From positions 41,850,001-41,914,000 of the forward strand of contig CM059446.1 in NCBI GenBank assembly GCA_030390025.1: a stretch of DNA of 64,000 bases, given 5' to 3'. Below are positions 281 to 57,902 of the stretch, piece by piece. The translations under genes were made by a program, and so were the position numbers. A model generated the notes under the pieces. That model was not told the DNA's origin and did not search any database. It saw nothing but the letters and a program-made list of their open reading frames with translations. Every line of letters begins with the position of its first letter. Within the stretch, counting starts at the first letter, position 1. The DNA comes from Squalus acanthias (taxonomy: Eukaryota).

Positions 281-3200
281 AGATAGATGAATTGACGGCA
301 CAAATAGAAATAAATGGATATGATCAGATAGCCATTACAGAGACGTAGCTGCAAGGTGACCAAGGCTGGGAACTGAATATTCAGGGGTATTTGACATTTT
401 AGAAGGATAGGCAGAAAGGAAAAGGAGATGAGGTAACTCTGTTAATAAAGGATAAGATCAGTACAGTAGTGAGAAATGATCTTGGCTCGGAAGATCAAGA
501 TGTAGAATCAGTTTGGGTGAAGATAAGAAATAATAAGGGAAAGAAGTCACTGGTGGGAGTAGTCTATAGGCCTCTTAACAGTGGCTACACTGTGGGACAG
601 AGTATAAATCAAGAAATAATCGGGACTTGTAAGAAAGTTACTGCAATAATCGTGGGCGATTTTAATCTTCATATAGATTGGACAAATCAAATTGGCAAAG
701 GTAGCCTTGAAGACGAGTTCATAGAGTGTATTCAGAACAGTTTCTTAGAACAATACATTGTGGAACCACCCAGGGAACAGGCTATTTTAGATCTGGTAAT
801 GTGTAATGAGACAGGATTAATAATGATCTCATAGTAAAGGATCCTTGAGGGAAGAGTGATCATAACATGATAGAATTTCACATTCAGTTTGAGGGTGAGT
901 AACTTGGGTCTGAAACTAGTGTCTTAAACTTAAATAAAGGCAATTACAAGGGTATGAAGACAGAGTTGCCTAAAGTGGACTGGGAAAATAGATTAAAAGG
1001 TAAGATGGTAGATAAGCAGTAGCAGACTTTCAAGGAGATATTTCATAACTCTCAACAAAGATATATTCCAGTGAGAAAGAAAGACTCTATGAGAAGGATG
1101 AACTATCTATGGCTTACTAAGGAAGTTAAGGAGGGTATCAAATTGAAAGAAAAGGCATACAATGTTGCAAAGATGAGTGGTAGGCCAGAAGATTGGAAAT
1201 TTTTTAGAAACTTGCAAAGGATGACTAAAAAAAAATAAAGAGGGAGAAAATAGATTATGAGAGTAAACTAACAAGAAATATAAAAACAGACAGTAAGAGC
1301 TTCTACAAGTATATAAAAAGGAAGAGAGTAGCTAAAGTAAATGTTGGTCCCTTAGAGGATGAGACTGGGGAATTAATAATGGGAAACAAGGAAATGGCAG
1401 AGACTTTGAACAAATATTTTGTAGCTGTCTTCACGGTAGAAGACACTAAAAACATCCCAATAATAGTGGAAAATCAAGGGGCAAAAGGGAGGGAGGAACT
1501 TAAAACAATCACTATCACTAGAGAAAAAGTACTAGGCAAACTAATGGGACTAAAAGCTGACAAGTCCCCTGGACCTGATGGCCTGCATCCTCAGGTCTTA
1601 AAAGAAGTGGCCGCAGAGATAGTGGATGCATTGGTTGTAATCTACCAAAATTTCCTAGACTCTGGAAAGGTCCCAGTGGATTGGAAAACCGCAAATGTAA
1701 TGCCCATATTCAAGAAAGGAGGGAGACAGAAAGCAGGAAACTATAGGCCAGTTAGCCTAACATCTGTCATTGGGAAAATGCTGGAATCTATTATTAAGGA
1801 AGTAGTAGCAGGACATTTAGAAGATCATAACACAATCAAGCAGAGTCAACATGGTTTTATGAAAGGGAAATCGTGTTTGACAAATTTATTAGAGTTCTTT
1901 GAGGATGTAATGAGTAGGGTGGATAAAGGAGAACCAGTAGATGTAGTGTATTTGGATTTCCAAATGGCATTCGATAAGGTGCCACATAAAAGGTTACTGC
2001 ACAAGATAAGAGCTCATTGTGTTGGGGGTAATATATTAGCATGGATAGAGGATTGGCTAATTAACAGAAATCAGAGAGTCGGTATAAATGGGTCATTTTC
2101 AGGTTGGCAAACTGTAACTAGTAGGGTGCCACAGGGATCAGTGCTGGGGCCTCAACAATTTACAATCTATATTAATGACTTGGATGAAGGGACCAAGTAT
2201 ACTGTAGCCAAATTTGCTGACGATACAAAGATAGGTGAGAAAGCAAGTTGTGAGGAGGACACAAAGGGGGAAAAATTCAGTCGCGCCCCATTTGGGGCGC
2301 AAATATCGTCCGGGCGCAAAAATTAGCGCCTGGCGCTAATTATCGCCACTGACTGGAAACTTCACTTTTAACGCCCCGGGAGATGATTGGAGCGCTAAAT
2401 CAGGCGCTGCACACCTGTCTTAAGGTGCAAAGGCCGAGGAGTGAGGCGCTAACTCAGAGCGCTGGCGAAGCTCATGTAATGTCAGTCAGCAATGGAACAC
2501 ACACACAATGGCACGGGCCAGTTCTTAAAGGGGATGGTTAATCTTGCTTTCCATCCACATCCTGTTCATTGCAGCCTTGAATCTCGGCCTGGAGAGACTT
2601 GCACATCAAATGTGCTGGAAAGAACAATGGAGAGTACCAGGCAAAGAGCTCAGAGTGCAGCCCCCACAGTCTCTGCTAAATCGATACAAGGAATGGCAAA
2701 TCAAAATGAACCTGCAAAGTGCTGCTCAGTACCCAAAACTCCTTCACACAACGTTGAATCTCTCCAGAAGTCTCTCCCTCTCTCTCTCAGAATGCGTAGT
2801 TCAAAAATGGCACCAACAATAAAAGGCAGGAAGCGGTCACCTTTAAATAGCGCTCCCCCTTTCCCTTCATGACTGCAGAACGCTCCCCTCAACCTGTCGT
2901 TGCTAGCGTCAGGTGGTAAGGCAGGGGGCACCACTCAATATCCGCTCCGGGGCGATACCGGGGCGTTGCACACTCGACTGACGTCATGATCTGCCGGCAC
3001 AGGAGATCGTGGCGGTAGTGTTTAGCGCCGCCGCAAAATGTCTAGTTAATTTCGCGAGCGGCGCAAACTTCGCCGTGCCTGGGCGCTAGATGCTTTGCGC
3101 CCCATTAGCGCCCTCTTAAGGCGCTATCGGGAGGCGCAACCAATTGAATTTTTCCCCCAAAGAGTCTGCAAAGGGATATAGATAGGTTAAGTGAGTGGGC

Positions 3201-4037
3201 AAAAATTTGGCAGATGGATTATAATGTGGGAAAATGTAAGGTTATCCACTTTGGTAGGAAGAATAGAAAAGCAAAATATTATTTAAATGGAGAGTGGCTA
3301 CAGAATGCTGCGGTACAGAAGGATCTGGGTGTCCTCGTACATGAAACACAAAAAGTTAGCATGCAGGTACTGCAAGTAATTAGGAAGGCAAATGGAATGT
3401 TGGCCTTTATTGCAAGGGGGTTGGAGTATAAATGTAGGGATGTCTTGCTACAACTGTACAGGGCGTTGGTCAGACCACACCTAGAGTACTGTGTACAGTT
3501 TTGGTCTCCTTATTTAAGGAGGGATATACTTGAATTGGAGGCAGTTCAGAGAAGGTTCGCTAGGTTGATTCCTGGGATGAAGGAGTTGTCTTATGAGGAA
3601 AGGTTGAGCAGGTTGGGCCTATACTCATTGGAGTTTAGAAGAATGAGAGGTGATCTTATTGAAACATATAAGATTCTGAGGGGGCTTGACAGGGTAGGTG
3701 CTGAGAGGATGTTTCCCCTCATGGGGGAATCTAGAACTAGGGGGCATAGTTTCAGAATAAGGGGTTTCCCATTTAATACAGAGATGAGGAGGAATTTCTT
3801 CTCTCAAAGGGCCGTGAATCTTTGGAATTCTCTACCCCAGAGAGCTGTGGAGGCTGAGTCATTGAATATATTCAAGGCTGAGATAGACAGATTTTTGAAC
3901 TACAGGGGAGTCAAGGGGTATGGGGAATAGGCAGAAAAGTGGAGTTGAGTCCAAGATCAGATCAGCCCTGATCTTATTGAATGGCGGAGCAGGCTCGAGG
4001 GGCCGAATGGCCTAGTCCTGCTCCTATTTCTTATGTT
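281..4037 (+). mobile_element. CR1 LINE, 5'-truncated and disrupted ORF2 (APE endonuclease + RT)
   Basis: APE motifs (VGVVYRP, VGDFN, ILDLV) in ORF 469..834. RT motifs (KSPGPDG, NYRPVSLTS, YLDF..AFDKV, PQGSVLGP, KFADD) in 1379..2326 and 3214..3930. Stops and frameshifts present. 3' tail cctatttcttatgttct. Confidence 0.95.
2266..3158. mobile_element. GC-rich non-autonomous TIR element (probably PIF/Harbinger-type) inserted in CR1
   Basis: TIR gggggaaaaattca / tgaatttttccccc and 3-bp aaa duplication. Removing it restores the CR1 frame (CEEDTK|SLQRDIDRL). Confidence 0.88.
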
Positions 4038-5112
4038 CTCACCCTCATCCTACTGCAAGCATACCAACTAACAGCATACAAGGGTAGGCACTTGGGTGTT
4101 TTAGCGAATGTTCATGTGATGTTTCTGGTAATGTGCTGTCAAACATTGAAATCTTTATTTTCAACACTTTGCGTTCTTGGACAGATTTCTGTGCACCTTT
4201 GGAAGTGGCTTAGTGAGTTGCAGTGAATGGTGAGACATAAGGGTACCCCCACAATGGTGATGAGTGTGAAAGGAATGGCTTGGGCATTGTAGGGATGCTG
4301 AATGGTGTTGGTGTGGGGTGGTGCCAACCTGGCGCATCATGTGGCAGCCAGGGTGTACAGCGTCAAGTGAAGTAAATCTGGCCATGGTGAGGCCATCCCT
4401 GGCGTCCCGAGCAGCAATGTGGTCGGGTGTTGATGCAATGTGTCCTGTGCAGCATCAGTTGATTGCAGAGAAGGTTGGTGTTGTTGTTGTTGCTGCTGGT
4501 GATGCTGGTGTTGGGGCTGATCGTGGTGGGATTCTGAGGATCAAGGTGAGATATTTTCAAGGGTGCTGATGGAATAGATGGCAGGTGAGGTTGAGATGAC
4601 AGAAACGATCTGTCAATGGTGAGAAAGGTTGTTCCAATGAGTGGCACTGGATAGAGAGTTGGCTGCAAACACTTGAAAGCTGTAGAAAGCTCAATATGTC
4701 TTCCAAATGCAGTAACCAACAGTTTCTGAGCTTTGAAAGTGAACAGCTGTAACTTGGGATCTTTTATACAACTTTGGCAGCTGTCAGGTCATGAGATAAT
4801 TCGATGCTGAATCCACTCATGACATGCTGAGCTGATGTGTTCCCCGAGCAGCATGTAACCCATGGGGGAGCAAGTAAAATTGAAAGGTAGGCAGAAAATA
4901 ATACTTAATTGGCTGTTAACAATGCATTTAATGATGTCAACTGCCTCCTCCGCCACTTGGTGTCGGGTCTGTTCAGCGCTGACAGACCCGACACCTGGGA
5001 GACTCGCGTGGAGGCGGGTTGACAGCGGGGTCCCGACCCGCTGTCAATCATTTCTATTTTCACAGCTGACCCGCCTCCGATCCCATCCTCTCGGCGCCAG
5101 TAAAATTCCGGC

Positions 5113-5183
5113 CGTTAACTCTGTTTCTCTCTCCACAGATGCTGCCTGACCTGCTGAGTATTTCCAGCATTTTCTGTTTTTAT
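5113..5183 (+). mobile_element. PLE family B pLTR fragment
   Basis: gttaactctgtttctctctccacagatgctgcctgacctgctgag matches 7801-7850. Confidence 0.75.
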
Positions 5184-7655: not shown

Positions 7656-7677
7656 GCCTGTGCAGTGCAGCCTGTAA

Positions 7678-7910
7678 TAAAAACAGAAAATGCTGGAGAT
7701 ACTCAGCCGGTCAGGCAGCATCTGCGGAGAGAGAAACAGAGTTAACGTTTCAGGTCGATGACCCTTCGTCAGAACAGGCGAAGGGTCATCGACCTGAAAC
7801 GTTAACTCTGTTTCTCTCTCCACAGATGCTGCCTGACCCTGCTGAGTATTTCCAGTAATCATCTGTTTTTATTTCAGATTTCCAGCATCCGCAGTATTTT
7901 GCTTTTGTAT
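7678..7910 (+). mobile_element. 233-bp fold-back PLE pLTR insertion (family B)
   Basis: TSD cagtgcagcctgtaa at 7663-7677 and 7911-7925. About 95-bp inverted arms around 7775, plus an unpaired 3' tail. Confidence 0.88.
7741..7775 (-). ncRNA. Minimal hammerhead ribozyme motif (family B)
   Basis: Minus strand: GUU-CUGACGA-A-GGGUC(AUC)GACCU-GAAA-CGUU-AAC. Confidence 0.8.
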
Positions 7911-8156
7911 CAGTGCAGCCTGTAACCTTGATCGCCATGGGAAAAATGACAGTATCCCTGCAACAGTTGCAATAGTGTGATTACTGGTGAGTGAAGTATT
8001 TTTCATTCTAGTTTTTGGAACAACATTCATGCATGATGGAGCATTTAGAATCCCCAGTGTATTTCCTGAAAACAATTGAAATATAACACTCTGGATATTG
8101 TGTAAAATGTCTCTCGAGAATCGCTAAAAATGTCAGAAGCAACTAAAAACTATATT

Positions 8157-12892: not shown

Positions 12893-13287
12893 CCTCGGGC
12901 GGCTGAATTGCTATTGCCCGTTTTACACTATTGCTCAAAGTCCAAATTACCCCCATATTGTGGAGCTAGAAACGGAGATCACGGCTGCGATTTTACAACC
13001 TCGGCGGGTCCGTGGTGGGCGACGTTGGTGGCAGGTCCTGACCCCGCTGCTGTCTCCATCCCAGCCTCTAAAATGAATTTCCCGAGATTGGGCTTGTTAA
13101 GCCCGCCCAGCGCGTTTCCCAGCCAATTAGAGGAAGCAGCCCTGGCGTCCCGGGCAACAACGTGCTCGGGTGCTGATGCCCTGTGTCCTGTGCAGCATCA
13201 GGTGATTGCAAAGAAGGCTGGTGATGTCATTTGATGACTCGTCATCAGCCGGTTTCCTTAAAGGGACCATGGCCAACTTTCTTTTGA

Positions 13288-14355
13288 GAGGTCGCACAAC
13301 ACCAGGTTATAGTCCAACAGTTTTATTTGAAATCACAAGCTTTCGGAGCTATCGCTCCTTCCTCAGGTGAAGTAAATTGGATACAGAATCGCCAGAGCAT
13401 ATATAGATGGAAAAAAAAGCATGTGTACTTTACAATTGCAGACCAATAAATTAAATCATCCTGACTATCTGCCGAGGTGTGATAAAGTTAATTAAGTCAG
13501 CCAGGAAGGTACCACATCAAAAGACATAGCAAGATACAACTGAGACAATGAGGTGTAGTCGCAGGGGTTCCAACGTGTCAAAAGCTGCCGTCTGTATGTA
13601 AAACGAAAAGCTTTAAAAAAAATTTACTTTTTTACTGGGAAAATTTTTACTTTTTTACTGGGAATCACATCTGTGAACAAGCTAACGACGACTCGAGTCC
13701 GGATCACGTCATGTATCGTGACATAAACCCAAGATCCCGATTGAGACCGTCTTCATGAGTGCGGAACTTGGCTATCAGTTTCTGCTCGATGATTTTGCGT
13801 TGTCGTGTGTTTCTAAGGTTGCCTTGGAGAACGCTTACCCGCAGATCCGAGGCTGAATGTCCTTGACTGCTGAAGTGTTCCCCGACTGGGAGGTAACAAT
13901 CCTGCCTGGCGATTGTTGCGCGGTGCTCGTTCATACGTTGTCTCAGTGTCTGCATGGTCTCGCCGATGTACCATGCCGCGGTGCATTCTTTCCTGCAACG
14001 TATGAGGTAGACAACGTTGGCCGAGTCACATGAGTATGTACCATGTACCTGGTGGGTAGTGTCCTCACGTGTGATGGTGGTATCTGTGTTGATGATCTGG
14101 CACGTCTTGCAGAGTTTGCCATGGCAGGGTTGTGTGGTGTCGTGGTCGCTGTTATCCTGAAAGCTGGGTAATTTGCTGCGAACGATGGTACTTCTGAGGT
14201 TAGGCGGCTGTTTGAAGGCAAGTAGTGGAGGCGTGGGGATGGCCTTAGCGAGGTGTTTGTCGTCATCGATGACATGTTGAAGGCTGCGAAGAACATGTCG
14301 TAGTTTCTCCGCTCCGGGGAAGTACTGGACGACGTAGGGTACCCTGTTGGTTGTG
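13288..14355 (-). repeat. Inverted copy of the PLE 3' ORF end and pLTR
   Basis: The minus-strand translation (13704..13955) is identical to the C-terminus of the main ORF. Junction microhomology tgtg at 14352-14355. Confidence 0.95.
13333..13370 (-). ncRNA. Minimal hammerhead ribozyme motif (PLE family A, inverted copy)
   Basis: Reverse complement of 14652-14689. Confidence 0.83.
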
Positions 14356-14777
14356 ATTCCCAGTAAAAAAGTAAAAATTTTCCCAGTAAAAAAGTAAATT
14401 TTTTTTTAAAGCTTTTCGTTTTACATACAGGCGGTAGCTTTTGACACGTTGGAACCCCTGCGACTACACCTCATTGTCTCAGTTGTATCTTGCTATGTCT
14501 TTTGATGTGGTACCTTCCTGGCTGACTTAATTAACTTTATCACACCTCGGCAGATAGTCAGGATGATTTAATTTATTGGTCTGCAATTGTAAAGTACACA
14601 TGCTTTTTTTTCCATCTATATATGCTCTGGCGATTCTGTATCCAATTTACTTCACCTGAGGAAGGAGCGATAGCTCCGAAAGCTTGTGATTTCAAATAAA
14701 ACTGTTGGACTATAACCTGGTGTTGTGCGACCTCTCAATTTTGTCCACCCCAGTCCAACACCGGCATCTCCGCATCA
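14352..14777 (+). repeat. Upstream pseudo-LTR of the PLE
   Basis: Near-identical to 17490-17915; ends at the A of the ORF start codon. Confidence 0.93.
14652..14689 (+). ncRNA. Minimal type I hammerhead ribozyme motif (PLE family A)
   Basis: UCAC-CUGAGGA-A-GGAGC(GAUA)GCUCC-GAAA-GCUU-GUGA: catalytic boxes, stem II, stem I UCAC/GUGA and palindromic AGCU stem III. Confidence 0.85.
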
Positions 14778-17455
14778 TGACCACTATCGACACCACAAAC
14801 TGCCGGCTCAAAGTGGAGAGAATCGCCAAGAAGATCGCGCATATCGACACCGACATCAAGTATCTACAGAGATGCAAGAAAGCAGACAAGATCCCGAAAG
14901 GACTACAGATCACGAACCCACTCAAGTCGACATACAACACAGACTACGCTGAGAGACTCTGCCGTCGTACCTCTCGCACACTCCTCAACCATCTCGTACA
15001 CCAGCTCTACAGCAAACGCCACAACCTCGAAACCAAGATAGAGTCCATGCTCTCAGCCTGTGCTCAGGACACAGCAGACCAGTTACGAGACACCACCAAA
15101 CAGACGAGGCAACGGAACTACGCTGCCTACATGCGCATCAAGAACAGGAAGCTTGAGAAACTCGGCATCACCACCAGCAGCAACCAAGCCTCCCCCGGTA
15201 CCACGGCTGCAACCACAGGGAAGTCCATCGTCAACTTGTCCGACCATACCCTTCAACCAGACGAAATCGAAGTTCTCGCCCTAGGGCTCAAGTTCTGCCC
15301 AACCACCAAAATGGACCCCATCGGTCTCGCGGCAGACACGGAGGAATTCATCAGGAGAATGAGGCTCCGGGAATACTTCCACAAATCCCAAGATGTCAGC
15401 AACAAACCCAATGAGACAATCAATGATCCAGAACTGCAGACAGAGGGACTCGCAGTGCAGCAACCGAAGAAAAAAGAGTCAAACTGGACCCCTCCGGAGG
15501 GTCGCTGCCCCAAGCTTGACATGTATGCTCAAGCTGTCAGGAAATGCATCAACGCCAGATTCATCAGCCGCACTCACAAGACAGTCCAGAATGTCACCCG
15601 AGCACAACGCAACGCCATCCATGCTCTCAAGACCAACCGCAACATTGTCATCAAACCAGCGGACAAAGGAGGAGCCATCGTCATACAGAACAGAACGGAC
15701 TATTGTAAAGAAGCATACCGACAACTGGACAACCAGGAACACTACAGACAGCTACCCGCAGATCCGACCAAAGAACACACCCGCCAACTCAATAGACTGA
15801 TCAAGACCTTCGATCCAGACCTTCAAAACATCCTACGCGCTCTCATCCCACGTACTCCCCGCGTGGGAGACTTCTACTGCCTCCCAAAGATACACAAAGC
15901 CAACACACCCGGACGTCCTATCGTATCAGGCAATGGAACCCTGTGTGAGAACCTCTCTGGATACGTCGAGGGCATTCTGAAACCCATCGTACAGGGAACC
16001 CCCAGCTTCTGTCGCGACACTACAGACTTCTTACAGAAACTCAGCACCCACGGACCAGTTGAACCAGGAACACTCCTTGCCACGATGGACGTATCGGCAC
16101 TCTACACCAGTATCCCCCACGATGACGGCATCGCTGCAACAGCCTCAGTACTCAACATCAACAACAGCCAATCTCCAGACGCCATCCTACAACTCATCCG
16201 CTTCATCCTTGACCACAATGTCTTCACCTTCGACAACCATTTTTTTACCCAAACACACGGAACAGCCATGGGGACCAAATTCGCACCCCAATACGCCAAC
16301 ATCTTCATGCACAAGTTCGAGCAAGACTTCTTCGCTGCACAGGACCTCCAGCCAACGCTGTACACCAGATACATCGACGACATTTTCTTCCTTTGGACCC
16401 ATGGCGAAGGATCACTGAAAAGACTACACGATAACATAAACAAGTTCCATCCCACCATCAAACTCACCATGGACTACTCCTCAGAATCGGTCTCATTCCT
16501 GGACACACGAATCTCCATCAAAGACGGACACCTCAGCACTTCACTCTACCGCAAGCCCACGGACAACCTCACGATGCTCCACTTCTCCAGCTTCCACCCT
16601 AACCATGTTAAAGAAGCCATCCCCTATGGACAAGCCCTGCGAATACACAGGATCTGCTCAGACGAGGAGGAACACGATGGACACCTACGGACGCTGAAAA
16701 ACGCCCTCGTAAGAACGGGATATGACGCTCGACTCATCGATCGACAGTTCCGACGGGCCACAGCGAAAAATCGCATAGACCTCCTCAGAAGGCAAACACG
16801 GGACACAACCAACAGGGTACCCTACGTCGTCCAGTACTTCCCCGGAGCGGAGAAACTACGACATGTTCTTCGCAGCCTTCAACATGTCATCGATGACGAC
16901 AAACACCTCGCTAAGGCCATCCCCACGCCTCCACTACTTGCCTTCAAACAGCCGCCTAACCTCAGAAGTACCATCGTTCGCAGCAAATTACCCAGCTTTC
17001 AGGATAACAGCGACCACGACACCACACAACCCTGCCATGGCAAACTCTGCAAGACGTGCCAGATCATCAACACAGATACCACCATCACACGTGAGGACAC
17101 TACCCACCAGGTACATGGTACATACTCATGTGACTCGGCCAACGTTGTCTACCTCATACGTTGCAGGAAAGAATGCACCGCGGCATGGTACATCGGCGAG
17201 ACCATGCAGACACTGAGACAACGTATGAACGAGCACCGCGCAACAATCGCCAGGCAGGATTGTTACCTCCCAGTTGGGGAACACTTCAGCAGTCAAGGAC
17301 ATTCAGCCTCGGATCTGCGGGTAAGCGTTCTCCAAGGCAACCTTAGAAACACACGACAACGCAAAATCATCGAGCAGAAACTGATAGCCAAGTTCCGCAC
17401 TCATGAAGACGGTCTCAATCGGGATCTTGGGTTTATGTCACGATACATGACGTGA
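14777..17455 (+). CDS. Penelope-like element (Neptune-type) polyprotein: reverse transcriptase + GIY-YIG endonuclease, intact
   Basis: Uninterrupted ORF (track 14705..17455; first ATG 14777). PLE RT motifs IKPADKGG, FYCLPKIHK, PGRPIVS, ATMDVSALYTSI, GTAMG, YTRYIDDIF. CxxxxCxxC linker (CHGKLCKTC). GIY-YIG domain VVYLIRCRKEC..WYIGET..RMNEH..EHF..GH..GLN. Confidence 0.96.
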   Translation: MTTIDTTNCRLKVERIAKKIAHIDTDIKYLQRCKKADKIPKGLQITNPLKSTYNTDYAERLCRRTSRTLLNHLVHQLYSKRHNLETKIESMLSACAQDTADQLRDTTKQTRQRNYAAYMRIKNRKLEKLGITTSSNQASPGTTAATTGKSIVNLSDHTLQPDEIEVLALGLKFCPTTKMDPIGLAADTEEFIRRMRLREYFHKSQDVSNKPNETINDPELQTEGLAVQQPKKKESNWTPPEGRCPKLDMYAQAVRKCINARFISRTHKTVQNVTRAQRNAIHALKTNRNIVIKPADKGGAIVIQNRTDYCKEAYRQLDNQEHYRQLPADPTKEHTRQLNRLIKTFDPDLQNILRALIPRTPRVGDFYCLPKIHKANTPGRPIVSGNGTLCENLSGYVEGILKPIVQGTPSFCRDTTDFLQKLSTHGPVEPGTLLATMDVSALYTSIPHDDGIAATASVLNINNSQSPDAILQLIRFILDHNVFTFDNHFFTQTHGTAMGTKFAPQYANIFMHKFEQDFFAAQDLQPTLYTRYIDDIFFLWTHGEGSLKRLHDNINKFHPTIKLTMDYSSESVSFLDTRISIKDGHLSTSLYRKPTDNLTMLHFSSFHPNHVKEAIPYGQALRIHRICSDEEEHDGHLRTLKNALVRTGYDARLIDRQFRRATAKNRIDLLRRQTRDTTNRVPYVVQYFPGAEKLRHVLRSLQHVIDDDKHLAKAIPTPPLLAFKQPPNLRSTIVRSKLPSFQDNSDHDTTQPCHGKLCKTCQIINTDTTITREDTTHQVHGTYSCDSANVVYLIRCRKECTAAWYIGETMQTLRQRMNEHRATIARQDCYLPVGEHFSSQGHSASDLRVSVLQGNLRNTRQRKIIEQKLIAKFRTHEDGLNRDLGFMSRYMT

Positions 17456-17489
17456 TCCGGACTCGAGTCGTCGTTAGCTTGTTCACAGA

Positions 17490-17915
17490 TGTGATTCCCA
17501 GTAAAAAAGTAAAAATTTTCCCAGTAAAAAAGTAAAATTTTTTTTAAAGCTTTTCGTTTTACATACAGACGGTAGCTTTTGACACGTTGGAACCCCTGCG
17601 ACTACACCTCATTGTCTCAGTTGTATCTTGCTATGTCTTTTGATGTGGTACCTTCCTGGCTGACTTAATTAACTTTATCACACCTCGGCAGATAGTCAGG
17701 ATGATTTAATTTATTGGTCTGCAATTGTAAAGTACACATGCTTTTTTTTCCATCTATATATGCTCTGGCGATTCTGTATCCAATTTACTTCACCTGAGGA
17801 AGGAGCGATAGCTCCGAAAGCTTGTGATTTCAAATAAAACTGTTGGACTATAACCTGGTGTTGTGCGACCTCTCAATTTTGTCCACCCCAGTCCAACACC
17901 GGCATCTCCGCATCA
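17490..17915 (+). repeat. Downstream pseudo-LTR of the PLE
   Basis: Near-identical to 14352-14777; followed directly by the TSD. Confidence 0.93.
17790..17827 (+). ncRNA. Minimal hammerhead ribozyme motif (PLE family A)
   Basis: Identical to 14652-14689. Confidence 0.85.
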
Positions 17916-17979
17916 CAACTTTCTTTTGACATTTGTGCTGTCAGTATTCTACAGCATTGAGGTGCTGCAAACACTGACA

Positions 17980-18215
17980 ATGACTGCACAGAGGCAAAGG
18001 GCTGCACCCAAGCTCTCACATAACTCTCTCCATATGCTTATGGAGGGAGTCACAGCACACAGGGAGGTCCTCTTCCCTTCCCATATGCAGAAGAGACCTC
18101 CCCAGGAGACCAACGCAGCCTGGTTGCACATTGCAGAGGAGGACACAAGCAGGGATGTGGTCAGGAGGACCTGGGTGCAGTGCCGCAAACCTTTCAATGA
18201 TCTCAATAGATCACA
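17980..18215 (+). pseudogene. Myb/SANT-like DNA-binding domain remnant (Harbinger ORF2-type)
   Basis: RAAPKLS..L..L..GV..HREVLFP...AW.HIAEE..SRDVVRRTWVQCRKPFNDL fits the Myb/SANT-like trihelix pattern. Confidence 0.72.
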
Positions 18216-19387
18216 AAACGCTAGTACAAAGTCACACTCAACCTCATCCTGCTGTGCCTCTCATCACATCCCCATCACTCTGCCTTCCCTACCCTACTCC
18301 TGCACATCCTTACTCACACCAACTTACCTTGCACCTCCACACATCCCTCTCTATCTACATTATCACATCCCCATCTCACTAGCCACCCCTCACACTCACC
18401 CTCATCCTAGTGTAATCACACCAACTAACAACACACTTGGGTGTTTTATGCAATGTTCATGTAAAGTTTCTGTTAATGTGGTGTCAAACATTGAAACCTT
18501 TATTTTGAACACTTTGCTTTCTTGGTCAGATTTGTGTGCTTTGGAAGTGGCTTAGTGAGTTGCCGTGAATGGTGAGACAGAACGGTACCCCCTGCAATGG
18601 TGATGAGTGTGAAAGGAATGGCTTGGGCATTGTAGGGATGATTTATGGTGTTGGTGTGGGGTGGTACCAACCTGGTGCTTCATGTACAGCATCAAGTGAA
18701 GGAAATCTGGCCATGGTGAAGCCATCCCTGGCCTTCCGGGCAGCAACGTGCTCGAGTGCTGATGCTCTCTGTCCTGTGCAGCATCAGGTGATTGCGAAGA
18801 AGGTTGGTGGTGGTGTTGGTGCTGTTGGTGTGCCTGGTGTTACTGGTGTTGGGTCTGATTGTGGTGGGATTCTGAGGACCAAGGTGAGAGAGTATAAAGG
18901 GCACCCATGCTGATGAAATAGATGGCAGGTGAAGTAGAGTTGACAGAAGCGATCTGTCAATGGTGAGAGAGGTAATGAGTTCAGACTGGATGGAGACTTG
19001 TGTAAAGACTTGCAGCATGGTGAATCTGTTGTGGAAATGCAGTGAGGAAGAGCTTGTGGCTGAGGGAAGATATCTCTGTAAGGTGGGAGCTTTTACTTTA
19101 CATTTAAAGCTGTCAACTCAACAGCTGATTCAATGGCCGCTGAACTCCTGCCTCAGCTTGACAGACGTGGTCCACGACTAGCGCGGACCCCATGGGCGAG
19201 CTGTCAAATGCAGAAGGTGAGTTGAAATTCATTCTTAAGTGGCTCTAAACAAGCCACTAATTACCTGAATTGGATCCCCCGCTGTGAACCCGCCGCTGCG
19301 TGTCGGGTCTGCTCAGCGCTGACAGACCCGACATCGGGGAAGGGTGCTTGGCGGCGGGTTCACAGCGGGGTCCCGATCCGCTGGGGA

Positions 19388-19690
19388 AAAAACTAAAGGG
19401 AAGATCTGTGATAAGGTAGAAGGTAGGAGTGATTTAATGAACAGCAGAATCATTACCAGCACCTGCTGTCTGAAAAAATGGGAGCAGAGGTTATGATCTG
19501 AAATTGTTGAACTCGATATTGAGTCCGGAAGGTTGTGAAGTGCCTAATAGAAAGATGAGGTGCTGTTCCTCGAGCTTCCGTTGAGCTTCATTGGAACAGT
19601 GTAGGAGGCCGAGGTCAGAGTTGGAGTGGATCGGAGAATTAAAATGGATAGCGACCGGAAGCTCAGGGTCATGCTTATGACTGAATGGAA
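19388..19690 (-). mobile_element. PLE family B fragment: GIY-YIG C-terminus and start of 3' repeat
   Basis: Translation LPVAIHFNSPIHSNSDL..EAQRKLEEQHLIFLLGTSQPSGLNIEFNNF. Downstream sequence (aagggaagatctgtgataaggtagaagg) matches 22896-22925. Confidence 0.8.
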
Positions 19691-20510: not shown

Positions 20511-20861
20511 TATATAAACCTTCTTAAAAAAAACTAATAGCTTACACACATTTTCCTAATTTTGCATGACTGATTTTAGCTGTGCCTCAGTAATCTGGTG
20601 AGAGTACTTACGTGCCTCTAAAGCCACAGTGACAGCTTATTAAAGTGATTCAGTGTGGAGGTACATTGCAAACACTTGACAGTATGCATGTAAGTAAGCC
20701 TTGCTGTATGTACTGAGAGTGGAGCATGGTTTTTACATGTACTTTTGATTAGTAATTAAAAACCAAAATGAAAACAAAGAATCAAATCAGAACCGGCATT
20801 CCAGAGAGGCCAGTAAATCAGGTGCAGCTGAAGGAAACGTTGGACAACCTGACTGAACACC

Positions 20862-21058
20862 TGAAATAACAACAGAAAATGCTGGAAACTCTCAGCAGGT
20901 CAGGCAGCATCCGTGGAGAGAGGAACAGATTTAACGTTTCAGGTCTGTGACCCTTCGTCAGAACTGGAAAAAGTTAGAGATGGAACAGATTTTAAGCAGG
21001 TGCAGAGGCAGGGAAAGCGGGGAGGGGAGCAAAGAACAAAAGGGACGGTCTGTGATTT
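20862..21058 (-). mobile_element. PLE family B pLTR fragment with hammerhead motif (20929-20965)
   Basis: Diverged reverse complement of ~23130-23335; core CUGACGA-AGGGUC(ACA)GACCU-GAAA-CGUU. Confidence 0.8.
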
Positions 21059-22868: not shown

Positions 22869-23362
22869 GAAGGGGGGAGGGGAGGAAAGATCTAAAAGGG
22901 AAGGTCTGTGATAGGATGGAAGGCAGAAGAGATTAAGAGGCAAAAGGGATGATGGTGCAAGGCAAAAGTAGATGGTAATGGGACAAGTTAAGAAACAAAA
23001 GATGACTCTAGATGAAGTGTAAATGGCAATAGCAGAGTGATCAACAGCTGCCATGTGAGAGAGAGAAAAAAAAATGAAAAAAAAGCTCTCTGTCCTCGGC
23101 CTCTTTTGTCTCTTAATCTCTCCTGCCTTCCATCCTATCACAGACCTTCCCTTTTGTTCTTTCCTCCCCTCCCCCCTCTCCCTGCCCCTGCACTTGCTTA
23201 AAAACCTGTTCCATCTCCAACTTTTTCCAGTTCTGACGAAGGGTCATCGACCTGAAACGTTGACTCTGTTTCTCTCTCCACAGATGCTGCCTGACCTGCT
23301 GAGTATCTCCAGCATTTTCTGTTTTTATTTCAGATTTCCAGCACCCGCAGTATTTTGCTTTT
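22868..23362 (+). mobile_element. PLE family B pLTR, partial inverted arm plus direct arm
   Basis: 22875-22950 is inverted relative to 23100-23180. The 3' end matches 7780-7907. Confidence 0.82.
23229..23265 (+). ncRNA. Minimal hammerhead ribozyme motif (family B)
   Basis: AGUU-CUGACGA-A-GGGUC(AUC)GACCU-GAAA-CGUU-GACU; palindromic ACGU stem III. Confidence 0.82.
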
Positions 23363-24819
23363 GAAGAAACAAAAGCTGATGGGGTGGGTGTATATTCCAC
23401 ACCCACTCAGACAGTTGGCTTGCCAGCTTCATGATAAGAGTTGTCAACACACATATATTTGCAACAGACCTCCCACCTTCAGCAGCTACACAAAAAGCAT
23501 CCTCTGGTGTCACTGGCGTGGGGGGAGATTGTGTTCTCTCTCCATTAGCAAGGCTAATGTGCACGATTCATCAGCCTTATGGATGGGGGTGGGGTAGAGA
23601 GCAGAATGTGAGTTATTCTATTTTATTTTGTTTCAGCTGCTCTAGGATTTGTACTTTAACACTCAGGACAGCTGTCTAGGGATGGGAGACCATTTCTTTT
23701 GTGTCTAATATTTATTTCTAAATCAAACTGACTAAATTAAATGCATAACCAAACAGCACAATGCCGCCTGGCAGCAGCAGGTGAGTGGTTTGTTAGTGCC
23801 TGTACTTCTGCGGACCAGATGACCCATCTTATGTTTAGACACTAGTGGTGCAATACTGCCTGAAACCAGCAAATTGTGATCTTGTGTACTTTACCACTTA
23901 CAATTTATTCCTGATGAAGCGCTTAAAGAGATTGTCCGCCAGAGTTACCAACTTATATTTTGGAGGCTAGCTTTATCAAAAGGGAATTGCCAGTGAGTGA
24001 TGGTGCGACTGAGTATCTGTGGCACTGTTACTGCTCATATTTCTTTTGGTTAAGTTTGCAAAATAGCTTTGTCAATGTGAAATAATTTGTCGGTTTTTAT
24101 TTTAGATTGCCACCAGCTGTCCCGGTTTCTGCAGACAGTGGGAATTGCGAAACGTAATGATGGTTCAAGGCTGGTCCTATTATTTTGGGGAGTGATTGCC
24201 TGAGAGGCTGCAATCTAAAGTGTGCTGTCCTCCAGACTCTACAAAGACACAATAGAGTGGGGAAGAGCATTGCAGTGAGGACAATTACAGTCGCAACAAT
24301 TCTCAACTATACTATTTTTTGAATTTTATCCAGTGCAGCGTCCGTCAGCCTATCATTATCCAATTGACGGCAATAGTGATTGAGTGAGCCACAGTGATTC
24401 AATTTTAAAATTCAGGATAAATTCATTGGATTTGTGCTACATTTTAAAAGTTATGGATAGACCTGTGAAACAATAGTGCTCTTGAAGATATTACTAACTG
24501 ACTGGCAAAGTGTTAAAGTGCTAAAACAGGATATTGTATTATAGGAACTTTGATTTATTTCAGAGAGATGTACCGACATTCTCCAAACTACAAGCAGTGC
24601 TGAATTTCACTAATCTTCCAAGGATTAAATACATATGAAGAGGTGGTTCCTCGTAGTACTCATCTTAGCCAAGCAAATACACTATCATTGTGCAGTCTGA
24701 AAAAATCAGTTCTAATTTTTTCTAAATGGATCACTCAAGACCCTGAACACCTCTAAAGAAATATGGAAATTATTTGAGATAATGACTGTTTGGCTTTAAG
24801 CATAAGATGTTCCTTAGTG

Positions 24820-30696: not shown

Positions 30697-31207
30697 AGAA
30701 CATAAGAAATAGGAGCAGGAGTAGACCATACGGCCCCTCGAGCCATTCAATAAGATCGTGGCTGATCTTCGACCTCAACTCCACTTGCCCGCTCCATTTC
30801 CATATCCCTTGATTCCCCTAGAGTCCAAAAGTCTATCTATCTCAGCCTTGAATATACTCAAACACTCAGCATTCACAGCCCTCTGGGGCAGATAATTCCA
30901 AAGATTCACAACACTCTGAGTGAAGAAATTCCTCCTCATCTCAGTCTTAAATGGCCTACCCCTTATCCTGAGACTATGCCCCCTAGTTCTAGACACTCCA
31001 GCCAGGGGAAACAACCTCTCAGCGTCTACCCTGTCAATCCCCTTCAGAATCTTGTACGTTTCAATGAGATCACCTCTCATTCTTCTAAACTCGAGAGAGT
31101 ATAGGCCCATTCTACACAATCTCTCATCATAGGACAGCCCTCTCATCCCAGGAATCAATCTAGTGAACCTTCGTTGCACCGCTTCCAAGGCAAGTATATC
31201 CTTCCTT
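30697..31207 (-). mobile_element. CR1 3' fragment
   Basis: ORF 30775..31188 matches the CR1 ORF2 C-terminus. Confidence 0.88.
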
Positions 31208-36004: not shown

Positions 36005-37230
36005 TCTGAGGAGGACTGCAGCAAGTTGCAGGAGGACATTAATAAACTTGCAGAATGAGTTATATAATTGGCAAATGAAGTTCAACACAGATAATTGTGA
36101 GGTACAGGAAACTCTTTGTTATCCGGCACCGACGGGACCGGGATGGTGCCAGTTGATTTAAAATTCCGGATAACGGAGAGGGTTATCTACCGAGGCTATT
36201 TTTAACAAACAAAGAGTCAGACTCCTGTTATTGAGGTGTTCGGACTTCCGACAGTGCCAAGAAGCCGAGTAGTGGCAGTTTGGAGAACTACTCCCACTGA
36301 CTAACTCGGCCACCGCGGGAGACTCGGACTCGGACTCGGCAACATTTCCGGTTATTGAGGTGTTTTCGGAATATGAATTTTGCCGGTTAATAGAGAATTC
36401 CGGATATTTAAGTGCCGTTTAAACAAGAGTTTCCTGTATTACATTCTGGTAGGAAGAATAGGGAGGTCACTTATTACTTGGAGGGTGTGAGTCTAGGTGG
36501 GGTAGAGGAACAAAGGGATCTCAGAGTACAAATACACAAATCACTAAAGTTGAGACACAGGTTAGCAAGGTCATAAAAAAGCAAACCAAGCACTAGGGTT
36601 TATTTCTAGAGGAATAGAATTGAAAAGCAGGGAAGTTATGCTAAACCTGTATCGAACCTTGGTTAGATGAGAGTACTGCGTACAGTTCTGGTCGCCATAT
36701 TATAAAAAGGATATAGAGGCACTGGAGAGGGTGCAGAGAAGATTTACAAGGATGATACCATAAATGCGAGGGTATACATATCAGGAAAGGATGAACAGGC
36801 TGGGTCTCTTTTCTCTTGACAAAAGAAGGCTGAGGAGTAACCTAATAGAGGTCTTTAAAATTATGAAAGGTTTTGATAGAGTGGATACAGAGAGAATGTT
36901 TCCACTTGTGGGGAAGAGCATAACTAGAGGCCATCAATATAAGATAGTCACCAAGAAATCCAATAGGGAATTCAGAAGAAACTTCTTTACCCAGAGAGTG
37001 GTGAGAATGTGGAACTCGCTACCACAGCGGGTGGTTGAAGCGAATAGTATAGATGCATTTAAGGGGAGGCTGGACAAGCATATGAGGGAGAAGGGAATAG
37101 AGGGTTATGCTGATAGATTTAGATGAGGAAAGATGGGAGGAGGCTCGAGTGGAGCATAAACGCCGGCATGGACTGGTTGGGCCGAATGGCCTGTTTCTGT
37201 GCCGTATATCCTATGTAATCGTATGTAATT
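36005..37230 (+). mobile_element. CR1 3' fragment interrupted by a MITE
   Basis: ORF 36764..37126 matches the CR1 C-terminus; tail ctatgtaatcgtatgtaat. Confidence 0.85.
36105..36436. mobile_element. Tc1/mariner (Tigger/pogo-like) MITE
   Basis: TA TSD; TIR caggaaactctt(t)gtt / aacaagagtttcctg; interrupts CR1. Confidence 0.82.
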
Positions 37231-38357: not shown

Positions 38358-39695
38358 GGGGGGATTTAAACCCCTAAAACGGGTGGGTTGGGGTCGGGTG
38401 GGAGGTTAAAGTGTTAAAAAACTGAATCCCGACCCCAAACCGCCTCCACCCCGTCCACTTCCGGTTTTAACGGAGGCGAGATGGGGGGTGGGCAGCCAAC
38501 CCACTCCCAGGAGGAGGGTCGCCCATTTAAATATTATAATGAGGCTGGTGTGCCTCAGATTTAACCACCATTACAAATTTAACGTTGGCTGGTCGGGTTT
38601 CTCAGGCATCGGGGAACCCGCCAGCTAAAATAAGGCAGGGACGCTGGATCCAGGAGGTAAATGCAAAGGCTTGAGGCCTCCGATCCCCCCCCCATGAACA
38701 ATGTTTCCCCTAAGGTGCGCGGCTGCACCAATCAGGAGGACCCGCGCAGGCCGTTCACCAGCTGCTGCCGCTGGAAAAGACACCGCGTAGCAAATTTAAA
38801 GGGACCCCGCACCAAAAAAAATTAGAGGGAACATTGCCCACGAGGTCTCCGATCCCCCCCACCAGGCCTCCGATCCCCCCACAAGGCCTCCGATCCCCCC
38901 CACCAGGCCTCCGATCCCCCCACAAGGCCTCCGATCCCCCCCACCAGGCCTCCGATCCCCCCAAAAGGCCTCCGATCCCCCCCACGAGGCCTCCGATCCC
39001 CCCCCCCACGAGGCCTCCGATCCCCCCCACGAGGCCTCCGATCCCCCCACAAGGCCTCTGATCCCCCAACAAGGCCTCCGATCCCCCCCACGAGGCCTCC
39101 GATCCCCAACACGGGGTCTCCGATCCCCCCCCACAAGGCCTCTGATCCCCCAACAAGACCTCAGATTCTCCCCACAAGGTCTCCGATCCCCCCACAAGGC
39201 CTCCGATCCCCCCTCGAGGCCTCCAATCATCTTCCTGGACTCCCCCCTCCAGCCCCGATGCTCCTCTGGCCCTGATCCTCTCCCCCCGCCCCCCCACCCC
39301 GATACTCTGGCCCCGATCCTGCCCCCCACCGAAGTTCCAGCCCTGATCCTTCCATTCCCCCCCCCCCCCCCCCCCACACCCCCCACCGCCCCCTGCCCTG
39401 ATCCTCCTCTGGTCAGCCCCGATCCTCTTTTCCCCCCCCCCACCCCCATTCCTCCTTCAGCCCCTGACCACTCCCGGCCCCCACCCGATCCTTCCCTCCC
39501 TCCTCTCTGCGGCCTAGTGCCGCAGGCCTACCCGCACGCAGCCAACCAGCCTCTCCATCTGCGGGCGAGAAACAGAGCTTTGAAATGCAAATCATCGCTG
39601 CCATTAAATTCGGCAGGACCTGCAGGAAACCCTGGTTTCTCGATCACGTTCTAGGCCCCCCACTCCCAACCCACCTCCAAATTAAAATTCCGGCC
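38358..39695 (+). mobile_element. 9037-family element with internal minisatellite
   Basis: 5' region matches 9037-9320; ends ttaaaattccggcc. Confidence 0.68.
38838..39225 (+). repeat. Minisatellite, ~20-22 bp unit aggcctccgatcccccc(c)ac(a/c/g)
   Basis: Roughly 18 tandem units visible; one more unit at ~38674. Confidence 0.95.
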
Positions 39696-40314
39696 AGGAG
39701 GTCAGAATTTCTAGCCTTCGACTGTAAAATATGTGATATTGATTGACCTTTTTGTAAAAGTAAGATAATATGAGAGGAATCACTGTTCAAAGAATGGCAG
39801 ATCTTCATTTCAAAAAGTCTAAAGTGATTGTTTTGTTCTAATGCGTTGAGTCCTGACGGACTCCCTGGAATCATAACAAACTGCTTGCTTTTTAATAGTA
39901 ATAGCCCTTTGCCCAAAGACTTCTTATCAAGTAGCTCCTGAAGTCCCTGTTAATATGGATTTTGGCCCTGATCTAGTGGTGTTTTATCGCTGATGTTACG
40001 AGTAGTTTTTTTTCCCCACTGCATTGATAAATTGAAAACTCTGAGGGCACGCTGTACAATTCTGCCCTATTTGAACAGCCAGAAGTGAAGGGAGATAGTG
40101 AACTGAAAGATGTTTCGCCAGCAGCCTAGGAGTCTCTCCCCGTCTGATTTGCAGCATGCTCACCAATGAAGCAAGAAACATTCACTGAGGCTGGGATTTT
40201 TGCTCAACTGTCTGTAGGTTGGTGGACCTCCAGCCTGCTCACTTACCATATGGCCCAGTGGCATTTTAAGCTCTCCATTTCTTTTTAAAAATGTCTCCAC
40301 CACATGCATAGTAG

Positions 40315-40655
40315 TTATGAGGGGCCTAGAGTGGACAGGAAGGACCTATTTCCTCGCAAAGAGGCCAATAACCAGGGGGCATAGATTTAAAGTAATTGGT
40401 AGAAGGAAGAGAGGGGAATTGAGGAGAACTTTTTTCACCCAGAGGGTGGTGGGGGTCTCGAACTCACTGCCTGAAAGGGTGGTAGAGGCAGAAACCCTCA
40501 CCGCATTTAAAAAGTACTTGGTTATGCACTTGAAGTGCCGTAACCTGCAAGGCTACGGACCAAGAGCTGGAAACTGGGATTATGCTGGATAGCTCTTTTT
40601 TCAGCCGGTGCAGACACGATGGGCCGAATGGCCTCCTTCTGTGCCGTTAATTTCT
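40315..40655 (+). mobile_element. CR1 3' fragment
   Basis: TRGHRFKV..FFTQRVV..NSLP. Confidence 0.8.
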
Positions 40656-49805: not shown

Positions 49806-50197
49806 TTTAAAACCTTGACGAATTTGATCCATCTAATAGCACAACCTTTCCTTGCACGCACTCCACAACAATTACAGTGTGTAGCCATGTAATCATCCTT
49901 TTTAATAACCTCACTTATGAGAGTAGATGGATTCTCTTTCACAGCTTTCAGTTGAACTGAATTTGAACGCTCTCTGCCTTACTGTTGCGAGGGAGTTGCT
50001 TCAGCTAATGGAACGGGGACAGCAACATGGGTGGAGTCTGACTGCGACTGATTGTACTGCTGTGGGAGGTAGAACTACTGGTGAGGAGGCTGTGTGGCAG
50101 ATATCTGCAGACAGCAGTATGAAATTCCTCAGATCACAGGATCTGTTCAGTAACTACAATTTTACCTGGCAGTACAGAACATCTGTTTTTAAATGAA

Positions 50198-52921: not shown

Positions 52922-52946
52922 TGCAGTGCTCGGAATACGTTCTGAG

Positions 52947-52960
52947 CGTCGGGGTCACCA
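52947..52960 (-). promoter_or_regulatory. Primer-binding site complementary to tRNA-Trp 3' end
   Basis: Minus strand TGGTGACCCCGACG, 1 nt after an LTR-like ...CAACA end. Confidence 0.85.
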
Positions 52961-56286: not shown

Positions 56287-56980
56287 ACTCAGGAGCTACA
56301 CCCACGGGCAAGCACTGGGGTGGAAGGACTGCTATTTTGGTGTGCGGCGGAAGTTCTTGAGTAAAGTGGCTTATGGAATTGGTTTCCGGCACATAATGAT
56401 TGCAAGAAATAAATTGTGTCTAAATAGGACGGGCAGCATTACTCCATTGTAAATGTTCAGCTTGGTGTACTCTTCTGATTTTGGTGATTAAACAAATAGA
56501 CTGTAACTTAATAAAACATGAAATAAAACTTAACAAATTAAATTAAAATTTGATTGGCCGGCGTGATGATGCACTCCAGTCCCCGCGACGCCTTAAGCTT
56601 GGTGTAGCCCGGCTGCAGTCACAGCGCTTCATTGCCGAAAGAGCTCTAAATGATTCATGGCACGGGGATGTGGTAAACGCTACAGCCTGCTTCTATTGCA
56701 CATCAAACAGCTATAATGGAACACTTCAGCACTAACAGTGTCGGTGTCCATCTCTATTCTAGGGCTGAATTAGAGCATTCCATGTATATTTCCTGAACAA
56801 TGGATCTCACCCGACAGGCCCTGTGAGATTCCTTGGTGCCCCATATTGCTGTACCAACACAATTGTGATTGTGACAGATTCCAGCCAGAAATGCCTCAAC
56901 ACCTTGTTCTCAATGACTAAATAGACTAAAATGAGAAGTCGCACAACACCAGGTTATAGTCCAACAGATTTATTTAAAAT

Positions 56981-57016
56981 TACAAGCTTTCGGAGCTGTC
57001 GCTCCTTCTTCAGGTA
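56981..57016 (-). ncRNA. Minimal hammerhead ribozyme motif (family A variant, inverted arm)
   Basis: Reverse complement of 57526-57561. Confidence 0.82.
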
Positions 57017-57525
57017 GGGTAGCTGTGAGAGAATCTCCCAGAATTCACAATATAAACACAGGAAAAATGTATTCAAATCTTTCCCTACATCAAAGACACA
57101 CTAAGAGCACAGCCAAGACAATGAGATGTGTCCCAGGGGGTCCAACGTGTCAAAACACCTGCTGGCTGCATATCCTCTCCATTTGTGTTTGGTTCTTGTG
57201 TTAGTTTTTTTTTAAAAACCTGGAAGGACCGGCCATGATGTCAAGTCACGTTCTGTATCGTGACATGAACCCGATATCGCGATTGAGGCCATCCTCATGA
57301 GTGCGGAACTTGGCTATCAGTTTCTGCTCTATGATTTTGCGCTGTCGTGTATCCCGAAGGCCGCCTTGGAGAACGCTTACCCGCAGATCCGAGGCTGAAT
57401 GCCCCTGACTGCTGAAGTGTTCCCCGATTCTCTCACAGCTGTGTGTCTTTGATGTAGGGAAAGATTTGAATACATTTTTTCTGTGTTTATATTGTGAATT
57501 CTGGGAGATTCTCTCACAGCTACCC

Positions 57526-57561
57526 TACCTGAAGAAGGAGCGACAGCTCCGAAAGCTTGTA
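57526..57561 (+). ncRNA. Minimal hammerhead ribozyme motif (family A variant)
   Basis: UAC-CUGAAGA-A-GGAGC(GACA)GCUCC-GAAA-GCUU-GUA. Confidence 0.83.
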
Positions 57562-57902
57562 ATTTTAAATCAATCTGTTGGACTATAACCTGGTGTTGTG
57601 CGACTTCTCATTTTTGTCCACCCCAGTCCAACGCCGGCATCTCCACATCATAAATAGACTAAAGCAGTAATACTGAAGGATAAGTTGAAATGGGTAATGA
57701 AACGAGCCCCATAAGAACATTTTCATGCCATATTTGCTAAATGGTGATGAGAATGAAACTCTCATCTAATGAAACACCCTGTACATCTCTCTGTTTCCTT
57801 TTAATTTGTGAAACAGGGAACAGGAAAATAATGTTGATTGTTTGGGAGGAAGGGAACCAGTGGTGCCAGTCCAGAAGTTGGCACACCAGTCACTTCCTTG
57901 GA

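Follow-up and report, generated by a model that had tools for sequence, protein, structure and literature searches.

Organization of the insertion

We analyzed 64,000 nucleotides of the Squalus acanthias genome (NCBI GenBank assembly GCA_030390025.1, contig CM059446.1, positions 41,850,001 to 41,914,000 of the forward strand; hereafter the window), in which 4628 bp at 13288-17915 hold a Penelope-like element (PLE) bracketed by an exact 14-bp target-site duplication (TSD). Inside the TSD lie, in this order, an inverted arm, a 5' pseudo-long terminal repeat (pLTR), an open reading frame (ORF) for a reverse transcriptase (RT) with a GIY-YIG endonuclease (EN), and a 3' pLTR, with a unit period of 3138 bp (Table 1). 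A 14-mer was shared in only 2 of 20000 draws of random pairs of 35-nt segments, draws running past the window end being skipped yet counted in the 20000. The inverted arm comprises the last 216 codons of the ORF, the 3' untranslated region (UTR) and a hammerhead ribozyme motif, without the 39-43-nt tail. By analogy with the D. virilis Penelope (PMC2377424), the 5' pLTR is likely to be the promoter region.

The inverted arm differs from its direct counterpart in 3 of 1069 columns (2 substitutions and 1 homopolymer indel), and the 5' pLTR from the 3' pLTR in 2 of 426 (1 substitution and 1 difference at a homopolymer boundary); altogether, the three repeat copies contain 3 substitutions, each private to one copy, and length differences in one A/T run. 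The perfect TSD and the three closely similar repeats reported in an initial annotation of this DNA were thus both recovered. At the pLTR start, a 23-nt sequence with A/T runs is duplicated in tandem (14357-14404, 17495-17542 and 13617-13664); the copy-specific homopolymer differences are located in this duplication, which is missing from the UTR of a sister subfamily described below. Near-identical repeats in inverted or tandem order are structures that trouble assemblies (PMC8557442), but an assembly artefact is extremely unlikely here, given the private differences in each repeat copy, the exact TSD around the whole and the same geometry in two other insertions of the window.

The observed/expected ratio (o/e) for CpG is 0.85 in the element, compared to 0.52 and 0.50 in the 5-kb flanks and 0.54 in the remainder of the window, and none of 101 equal-sized non-overlapping tiles reaches 0.85 (maximum 0.83). 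The claim of a CpG-rich element in a CpG-poor region is correct in direction, although the contrast is moderate and a shorter gypsy-like element of the window, with 0.93, exceeds the PLE.

Table 1. Features of the PLE insertion and of a sister-subfamily insertion in the window (positions are those of the window)
Feature	Position	Strand	Remarks
Left TSD copy, 14 bp	13274-13287	+	last 4 nt complementary to element RNA 17873-17876 (microhomology)
Inverted 5'-truncated arm, 1068 bp	13288-14355	-	reverse complement of 16804-17872
Minimal type I hammerhead, inverted-arm copy	13333-13370	-	descriptor match
Inversion junction	14352-14355		4-nt microhomology common to inverted arm and 5' pLTR start
5' pLTR, 426 bp	14352-14777	+	5'-truncated upstream unit copy; begins 35 nt past stop-codon equivalent
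Minimal hammerhead, 5' pLTR copy	14652-14689	+	descriptor match; predicted cut after 14685
Single ORF, 892 aa	14777-17455	+	N-terminal helices, telomerase-like RT, thumb, Cys linker, GIY-YIG endonuclease
N-terminal long helices, aa 6-128	14792-15160	+	AF2 model
RT core, DKG motif to thumb strands	15644-16546	+	Pfam RVT_1; Foldseek TERT; catalytic D438, D534, D535
CX4CxxC zinc-finger-like linker	17033-17059	+	C753, C758, C761; also conserved C785
GIY-YIG endonuclease	17129-17452	+	CCHH = C796, C800, H820, H836; catalytic Y792, Y805, G807, R816, E866, N881
3' pLTR	17490-17915	+	terminal base = equivalent of start-codon A
Minimal hammerhead, 3' copy	17790-17827	+	descriptor match
Tail, 39-43 nt	17873-17915	+	at direct end only
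Right TSD copy, 14 bp	17916-17929	+	no homology to RNA continuation at tailed end
Sister-subfamily insertion, 5'-truncated, head-to-head	56931-57650		13-bp TSD (56918-56930 / 57651-57663), two hammerheads

The encoded protein

The ORF contains the motifs KPADKG (293), GRPI (379), DVSALY (438), GTAMG (495) and YIDD (532) and, toward its C-terminus, C753-x4-C758-xx-C761, VVY (790), YIG (805), R816, H820, H836, E866 and GLN (879), in agreement with the earlier description of a stop-free RT and GIY-YIG frame with intact catalytic motifs. Pfam identified RVT_1 in the ORF (E=1e-8) and GIY-YIG in the last 155 amino acids (22.7 bits against a cutoff of 22.6; E=1.3e-4). A profile search of the PDB returned the I-TevI domain 1ln0 (E=0.043) among 5 weak matches, and a PDB sequence search with the protein returned 0 matches, with no relative of solved structure at E<=0.1. 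The AF2 model, based on a 140-row alignment, has a pLDDT of 93, and TERT occupies all of its Foldseek ranks 1-10 (best E=1.7e-9), which is the expectation for a PLE. Homodimer predictions for residues 1-135, run without an alignment, gave 0.01, 0.41 and 0.00 and count neither way; the matching N-terminal region of an anole PLE protein has been predicted to dimerize and to bind nucleic acid (PMC11167929).

Protein relatives were taken from the best 120 of 666 and the best 120 of 352 matches. Among the matches listed, the shark relatives belong to Heptranchias (92-94%), Scyliorhinus (80-85%), Mustelus (82%) and Chiloscyllium (up to 85%), no named shark match is full-length or reaches the N-terminus, and no match exceeds 94%; near-identical sister copies were thus not seen, though 90% clustering could hide them. 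The shark matches imply a shark host. A protein of Heptranchias that carries the annotation of an epn2 isoform includes ~260 amino acids of PLE RT region at 94% identity, a stretch that is an exonised or mis-annotated intronic PLE copy. The 857 columns covered by 30 or more sequences include 169 with a conservation of 80% or more; the ORF agrees with the alignment at 159 of these, all 10 departures are common to shark relatives, and no lesion was found at the catalytic positions.

The hammerhead motif

A descriptor written from the published minimal PLE motif (PMC4209133) found a hammerhead in all three repeats, as the initial annotation had proposed (C3 at 14656 and 17794 on the plus strand and at 13366 on the minus strand). 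The descriptor matched 7 times in the window, always in PLE-type repeats, and 0 times in 100 Markov-resampled windows. Rfam reported no family at gathering score anywhere in the 64-kb window and, on the pLTR, no hammerhead family at E<=10, only two chance miRNA matches. The predicted structure consists of a 4-bp stem I, an intact core, a bulged A, a 5-bp stem II and palindromic 15.2/16.2 positions, and its predicted cut lies 92 nt before the AUG. It shares with the minimal metazoan PLE hammerheads the short stem I, the extra nucleotide between 9 and 10.1, G10.1-C11.1, the 15.2-16.2 palindrome and the lack of a helix III, whereas stem II has 7-8 bp in the Schistosoma families (PMC4209133); the motif described here is predicted to cleave, and minimal PLE hammerheads are known to cleave weakly and as dimers (PMC4209133). 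The 4 differences from the sister-subfamily copy comprise a compensatory stem I pair, core position 7 (N7) and loop II. Because the cDNAs of the insertion traverse the hammerhead cut site three times, their template was uncleaved or re-ligated. We conclude that the ribozyme is conserved, but probably dispensable for insertion.

Clade placement and published relatives

All features of EN+ PLEs are present: a telomerase-related RT, a C-terminal GIY-YIG with CCHH, pLTRs, an inverted copy, a tail, a TSD and a hammerhead. The layout is that of the published frequent active form of D. virilis Penelope and of the typical PLE scheme; the D. virilis form also has a partial tandem, large flanking inverted repeats and a 34-37-bp terminal repeat (PMC2377424, legend to Fig. 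1C), whereas D. virilis Penelope differs in belonging to the Penelope/Poseidon clade and is described with an intron and a demonstrated internal promoter (PMC2377424). With the Neptune and Nematis EN+ PLEs the element shares the C-terminal GIY-YIG with CCHH, the CX2-5CxxC linker, GxKF and DKG, as well as hammerhead pLTRs, an inverted 5' copy and a 30-40-nt tail (PMC8557442, PMC3846280); no structural departure from these elements was found, and the TSD here is not a microsatellite.

Three other placements were rejected. The Cys linker rules out Penelope/Poseidon under the definitions of PMC8557442; the C-terminal EN, the DKG motif and the hammerhead rule out Naiad/Chlamys, which have an N-terminal EN, DKA or DK and no hammerhead; and CCHH and DKG rule out Hydra, which lacks CCHH and has DKT and a CxCX5C linker. 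Each Cys of C753-x4-C758-xx-C761 is 92-98% conserved among homologues. The initial annotation had treated the Cys-rich linker as the mark of Neptune; the CX4CxxC is indeed there, but a CX2-5CxxC linker occurs in both Neptune and Nematis, the Nematis linker being described as "reduced", and Neptune is paraphyletic (PMC8557442). The full CX4CxxC plus the further Cys leans to Neptune over Nematis, and the element is likely Neptune-type, as judged by its linker and motifs. A tree (quick search, SH-aLRT support only, 65 of the 140 aligned rows, named PLE references not among them) groups the ORF with shark, turtle and crinoid rows (99), and the end branch of the ORF (0.013) is the shortest of the 4 shark rows in it.

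Neptune PLEs have been reported in fishes (PMC4209133) and in five vertebrate classes, with one chondrichthyan in the sample (bioRxiv 10.64898/2026.07.22.740005). No paper that brings together Penelope, Neptune and sharks was found in the literature searched, which leaves out most subscription papers, and the element may be an already catalogued shark family. The novelty of the element as a candidate active vertebrate PLE was overstated, since the architecture (PMC2377424), minimal hammerheads in fish Neptune PLEs (PMC4209133) and the in vitro reconstitution of a vertebrate PLE protein, that of the anole Poseidon (PMC11167929), have already been published; it is a new, well-preserved example of a known element type.

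Age and mobility

The 3 substitutions in 2605 site-copies (1.15e-3) imply an age of 1.6 million generations (0.34-4.8 million) at the epaulette-shark mutation rate of 7e-10 per generation (PMC10587355), a figure that is an upper bound, in that RT error, template differences and assembly error also count, and that uses a rate from another species with a tenfold confidence interval. The description of the copy as very young holds for the pairwise repeat divergence, which is 0.1-0.2%, but is tempered by slow shark mutation. The divergence equals the nucleotide diversity of the epaulette shark (0.002; PMC10587355), so that the copy could be polymorphic or fixed. The sister insertion, with 2 differences in 171 sites between its arms, is older than the main element, although the counts are small. 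We consider it likely that the locus holds a structurally complete insertion of an autonomous EN+ Cys-linker (Neptune/Nematis) PLE in a shark genome, intact by sequence.

Several residues of the ORF weigh against such integrity. Over the 871 positions with three or more close relatives, 14 residues are unlike all close relatives where at least 75% of these agree; 3 of the 14 fit CpG decay, and none is catalytic. Six of the 14 lie in the part duplicated in the inverted arm and are identical there, and hence predate the insertion. One residue outside the duplicated part, H633 (Arg in the relatives), is compatible with CpG decay at a later time, and the unduplicated ORF is expected to contain ~2 private substitutions that go unseen. 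It is quite possible, if short of probable, that the same element is a fixed and silent fossil of an immobile family, which looks young through slow shark mutation. The 1.6 million generations calculated above fit such a fossil, one of the substitutions is a CpG-type C>T change of the ORF copy at a site that is still C in both the inverted arm and the sister copy, the listed shark matches stop short of the N-terminus and most look degraded, and anole Neptune insertions have been described as rare and mostly fixed (PMC7561263). Yet the age is only an upper bound, a copy whose divergence matches epaulette-shark diversity could still segregate, the CpG o/e is 0.85, and the same anole table gives, for one cluster, 215 Neptune insertions as polymorphic and 3 as fixed; anoles are polymorphic for Penelope insertions (PMC7561263).

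Neighboring insertions share the end geometry

The sister-subfamily insertion is ~90% identical to the main element in the EN end and the hammerhead-tail part. Its 59 EN codons give a pN/pS of 0.12 (Fisher p=3e-6), and the hammerhead-plus-tail module is identical at 114 of 124 positions between the subfamilies, the UTR upstream aligning at 161 of 337; together, these values indicate that the protein and the RNA module were under selection during subfamily divergence. The direct arm of the sister insertion ends at the same base as that of the main element, the start-codon A, 92 nt past the predicted cut, and its inverted arm stops short of that base by 36-39 nt, compared to 39-43 nt in the main element. 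Its junction contains a 13-15-nt filler (57426-57440) that was templated by the stretch at 57507-57521, immediately upstream of the insertion's own hammerhead. A third insertion (7678-7910), without blastn similarity to the main family, is likewise head-to-head, with a 15-bp TSD, a 37-39-nt tail and a hammerhead. The third insertion (7663-7925 with its TSD) belongs to a second, unrelated repeat family with a minimal hammerhead, which also occurs at 23150-23400 (+), 20853-21043 (-) and 5113-5183 (+); no ORF was found for this family, and its copies are probably pLTR remnants of another PLE family. A universal cut-to-end distance of 92 nt was rejected, as the second family has 107 nt.

All three TSD-flanked inverted insertions examined have a single tail of 36-43 nt. 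At the tail-less end, exact microhomology extends over 4, 3 and 2 nt, and the target matches the RNA continuation at 4, 6 and 5 of the first 7 nt. At the two testable tailed ends the exact match is 0 and 1 nt, with 2 and 3 of the first 7 nt matching. The combined p is 0.006, 0.02 and 0.05 for match rates of 0.25, 0.30 and 0.35, respectively. This asymmetry between tailed and tail-less ends (n=3) is suggestive, and the end geometry fits priming by both target strands at two fixed RNA sites.

A model for the insertion

Recorded in the DNA are a 14-nt stagger, two opposed copies from nearby RNA positions, a 4-nt microhomology joint and three passages through the hammerhead site. The likely course of events behind these features begins with a parent partial tandem that would have been transcribed from its pLTR and translated, its protein binding the RNA near the hammerhead-plus-tail module. 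The GIY-YIG domain would nick the two target strands 14 nt apart, the product of which is seen as the TSD. As the junctions suggest, the bottom-strand 3'-OH would then start cDNA synthesis unpaired at the distal RNA site (the AUG-equivalent A) and copy 3564 nt, one unit plus 426 nt, and the top-strand 3'-OH would pair over ~4 nt at a second site, 39-43 nt upstream, and copy 1068 nt. As this top-strand stretch overlaps the first template, a second RNA copy would be needed. The two cDNAs would be joined by repair, head to head, through the 4-nt microhomology seen at the junction.

The closest biochemical parallel comes from PAc, a Poseidon element of Anolis carolinensis that, like the element described here, has one ORF with N-terminal helices, RT and GIY-YIG, a hammerhead, a tail lying between two reverse transcription start sites internal to the RNA, and AT-rich targets (71% and 85% AT here) (PMC11167929). 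The PAc protein nicks and extends both strands, and hammerhead cleavage is not needed (PMC11167929). The distance from cut to start is 85-92 nt in PAc, compared to 92 nt to the distal end here and the longer distance in the second family. PAc differs in having no Cys linker and in a hammerhead that overlaps the start codon, with reverse transcription starting at +111-118 inside the ORF, whereas both lie upstream of the AUG here; PAc is active in vitro, whereas our element is known from sequence alone (PMC11167929).

In L1 twin priming, a 5' inversion results when the second target strand, held by short pairing, primes at an internal site. The two arms in L1 are copied from separate parts of a single RNA, whereas the arms here overlap and have fixed start sites. 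In a search that left out most subscription papers, no paper was found that links Penelope elements, their tail and second-strand target-primed reverse transcription to microhomology, and among the papers listed none brings twin priming and pseudo-LTRs together.

We tentatively propose, while regarding it as rather doubtful, that the copy is still competent and, jointly, that its junctions record strand-asymmetric double priming, with a homology-free distal start followed by a microhomology-guided start. Three observations speak against the model of insertion set out above: the microhomology signal has n=3, was noticed before testing and is no longer significant (p=0.052) at a 35% match rate; the tail region folds no better than shuffled sequences (z=-0.62; 46 of 200 as good); and, contrary to the proposed asymmetry, PAc showed no difference in start site between the strands in vitro (PMC11167929).

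An origin of the inverted arm in fold-back self-priming on an antisense template, or in later repair, appears unlikely. Palindromes at the inverted junction led to the proposal of fold-back in rotifer Penelopes (PMC3846280), and both the near fold-back junction of the third insertion (7778/7779) and the short templated filler of the sister copy would suit such a process. In the main element, however, the junction leads from the ORF at 16804 to the UTR at 17490 through 4 nt and is no palindrome, which fold-back does not fit, and in two subfamilies the arm meets the TSD, at its outer end, at almost identical RNA positions.

Less likely still is that the more-than-unit length arose by rolling-circle reverse transcription of a hammerhead-cut and re-ligated circle of 3138 nt, a model proposed in PMC4209133. 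Two same-sense hammerheads do lie one unit apart, and their palindromic helix III could pair as a dimer. A linear pLTR-ORF-pLTR transcript nevertheless suffices for the direct arm, minimal hammerheads cleave poorly (PMC4209133), and uncleaved RNA is the main PAc substrate, with no reads ending at the cut site (PMC11167929).

Genomic surroundings

The PLE lies directly upstream of a Myb/SANT-like frame at 17854-18555 (+) (Pfam Myb_DNA-bind_5, E=2e-7), whose host repeat is probably of PIF/Harbinger type; a related repeat occurs at 1-280 and 4038-4922. A check for an empty site found no paralogue of the host repeat in the window that spans the insertion junction, and a 235-aa stop-free frame that crosses the junction does so by only 27 aa upstream, which makes it weak for this purpose. 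A decayed fragment resembling the C-terminus of the PLE endonuclease lies at 19518-19676 (-) (tblastn 42% over 57 aa, E=0.003).

The gypsy-like LTR retroelement (50154-52954, -) encodes a gag-like DUF7041, a protease, a partial RT, RNase H and an integrase in two frames. It has a GC content of ~0.6, and its CpG o/e, given above, indicates that it is probably also recent; an internal deletion is suggested by its RT match, which is confined to profile positions 126-205. Broken non-LTR fragments, presumably CR1-like, are present at 403-3930, 30775-31206, 36764-37126 and 40218-40592, with Pfam endonuclease and RT matches at 403-831 and 1229-2323, and GC-skewed low-complexity tandem repeats with long open frames on both strands extend over 38755-39654.

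Significance

Intact PLE copies of this layout are known, and the element itself would hold no surprise for a specialist. Its value lies in a natural full-length Cys-linker PLE and in an end geometry common to three insertions: the ORF is unmended, and both RNA start sites can be read from the junctions. The second-strand, tail and inverted-arm steps of PLE insertion are left unvalidated in PMC11167929. As a structurally complete element, the copy is a handy laboratory candidate that would allow the anole result to be tested in a second clade, together with the role of the extra zinc finger. If the copy is competent and primes as proposed, it would be the first biochemically usable Cys-linker (Neptune-type) PLE found in the literature searched, and a single mechanism would explain the PLE tail, the inverted arm and the TSD.

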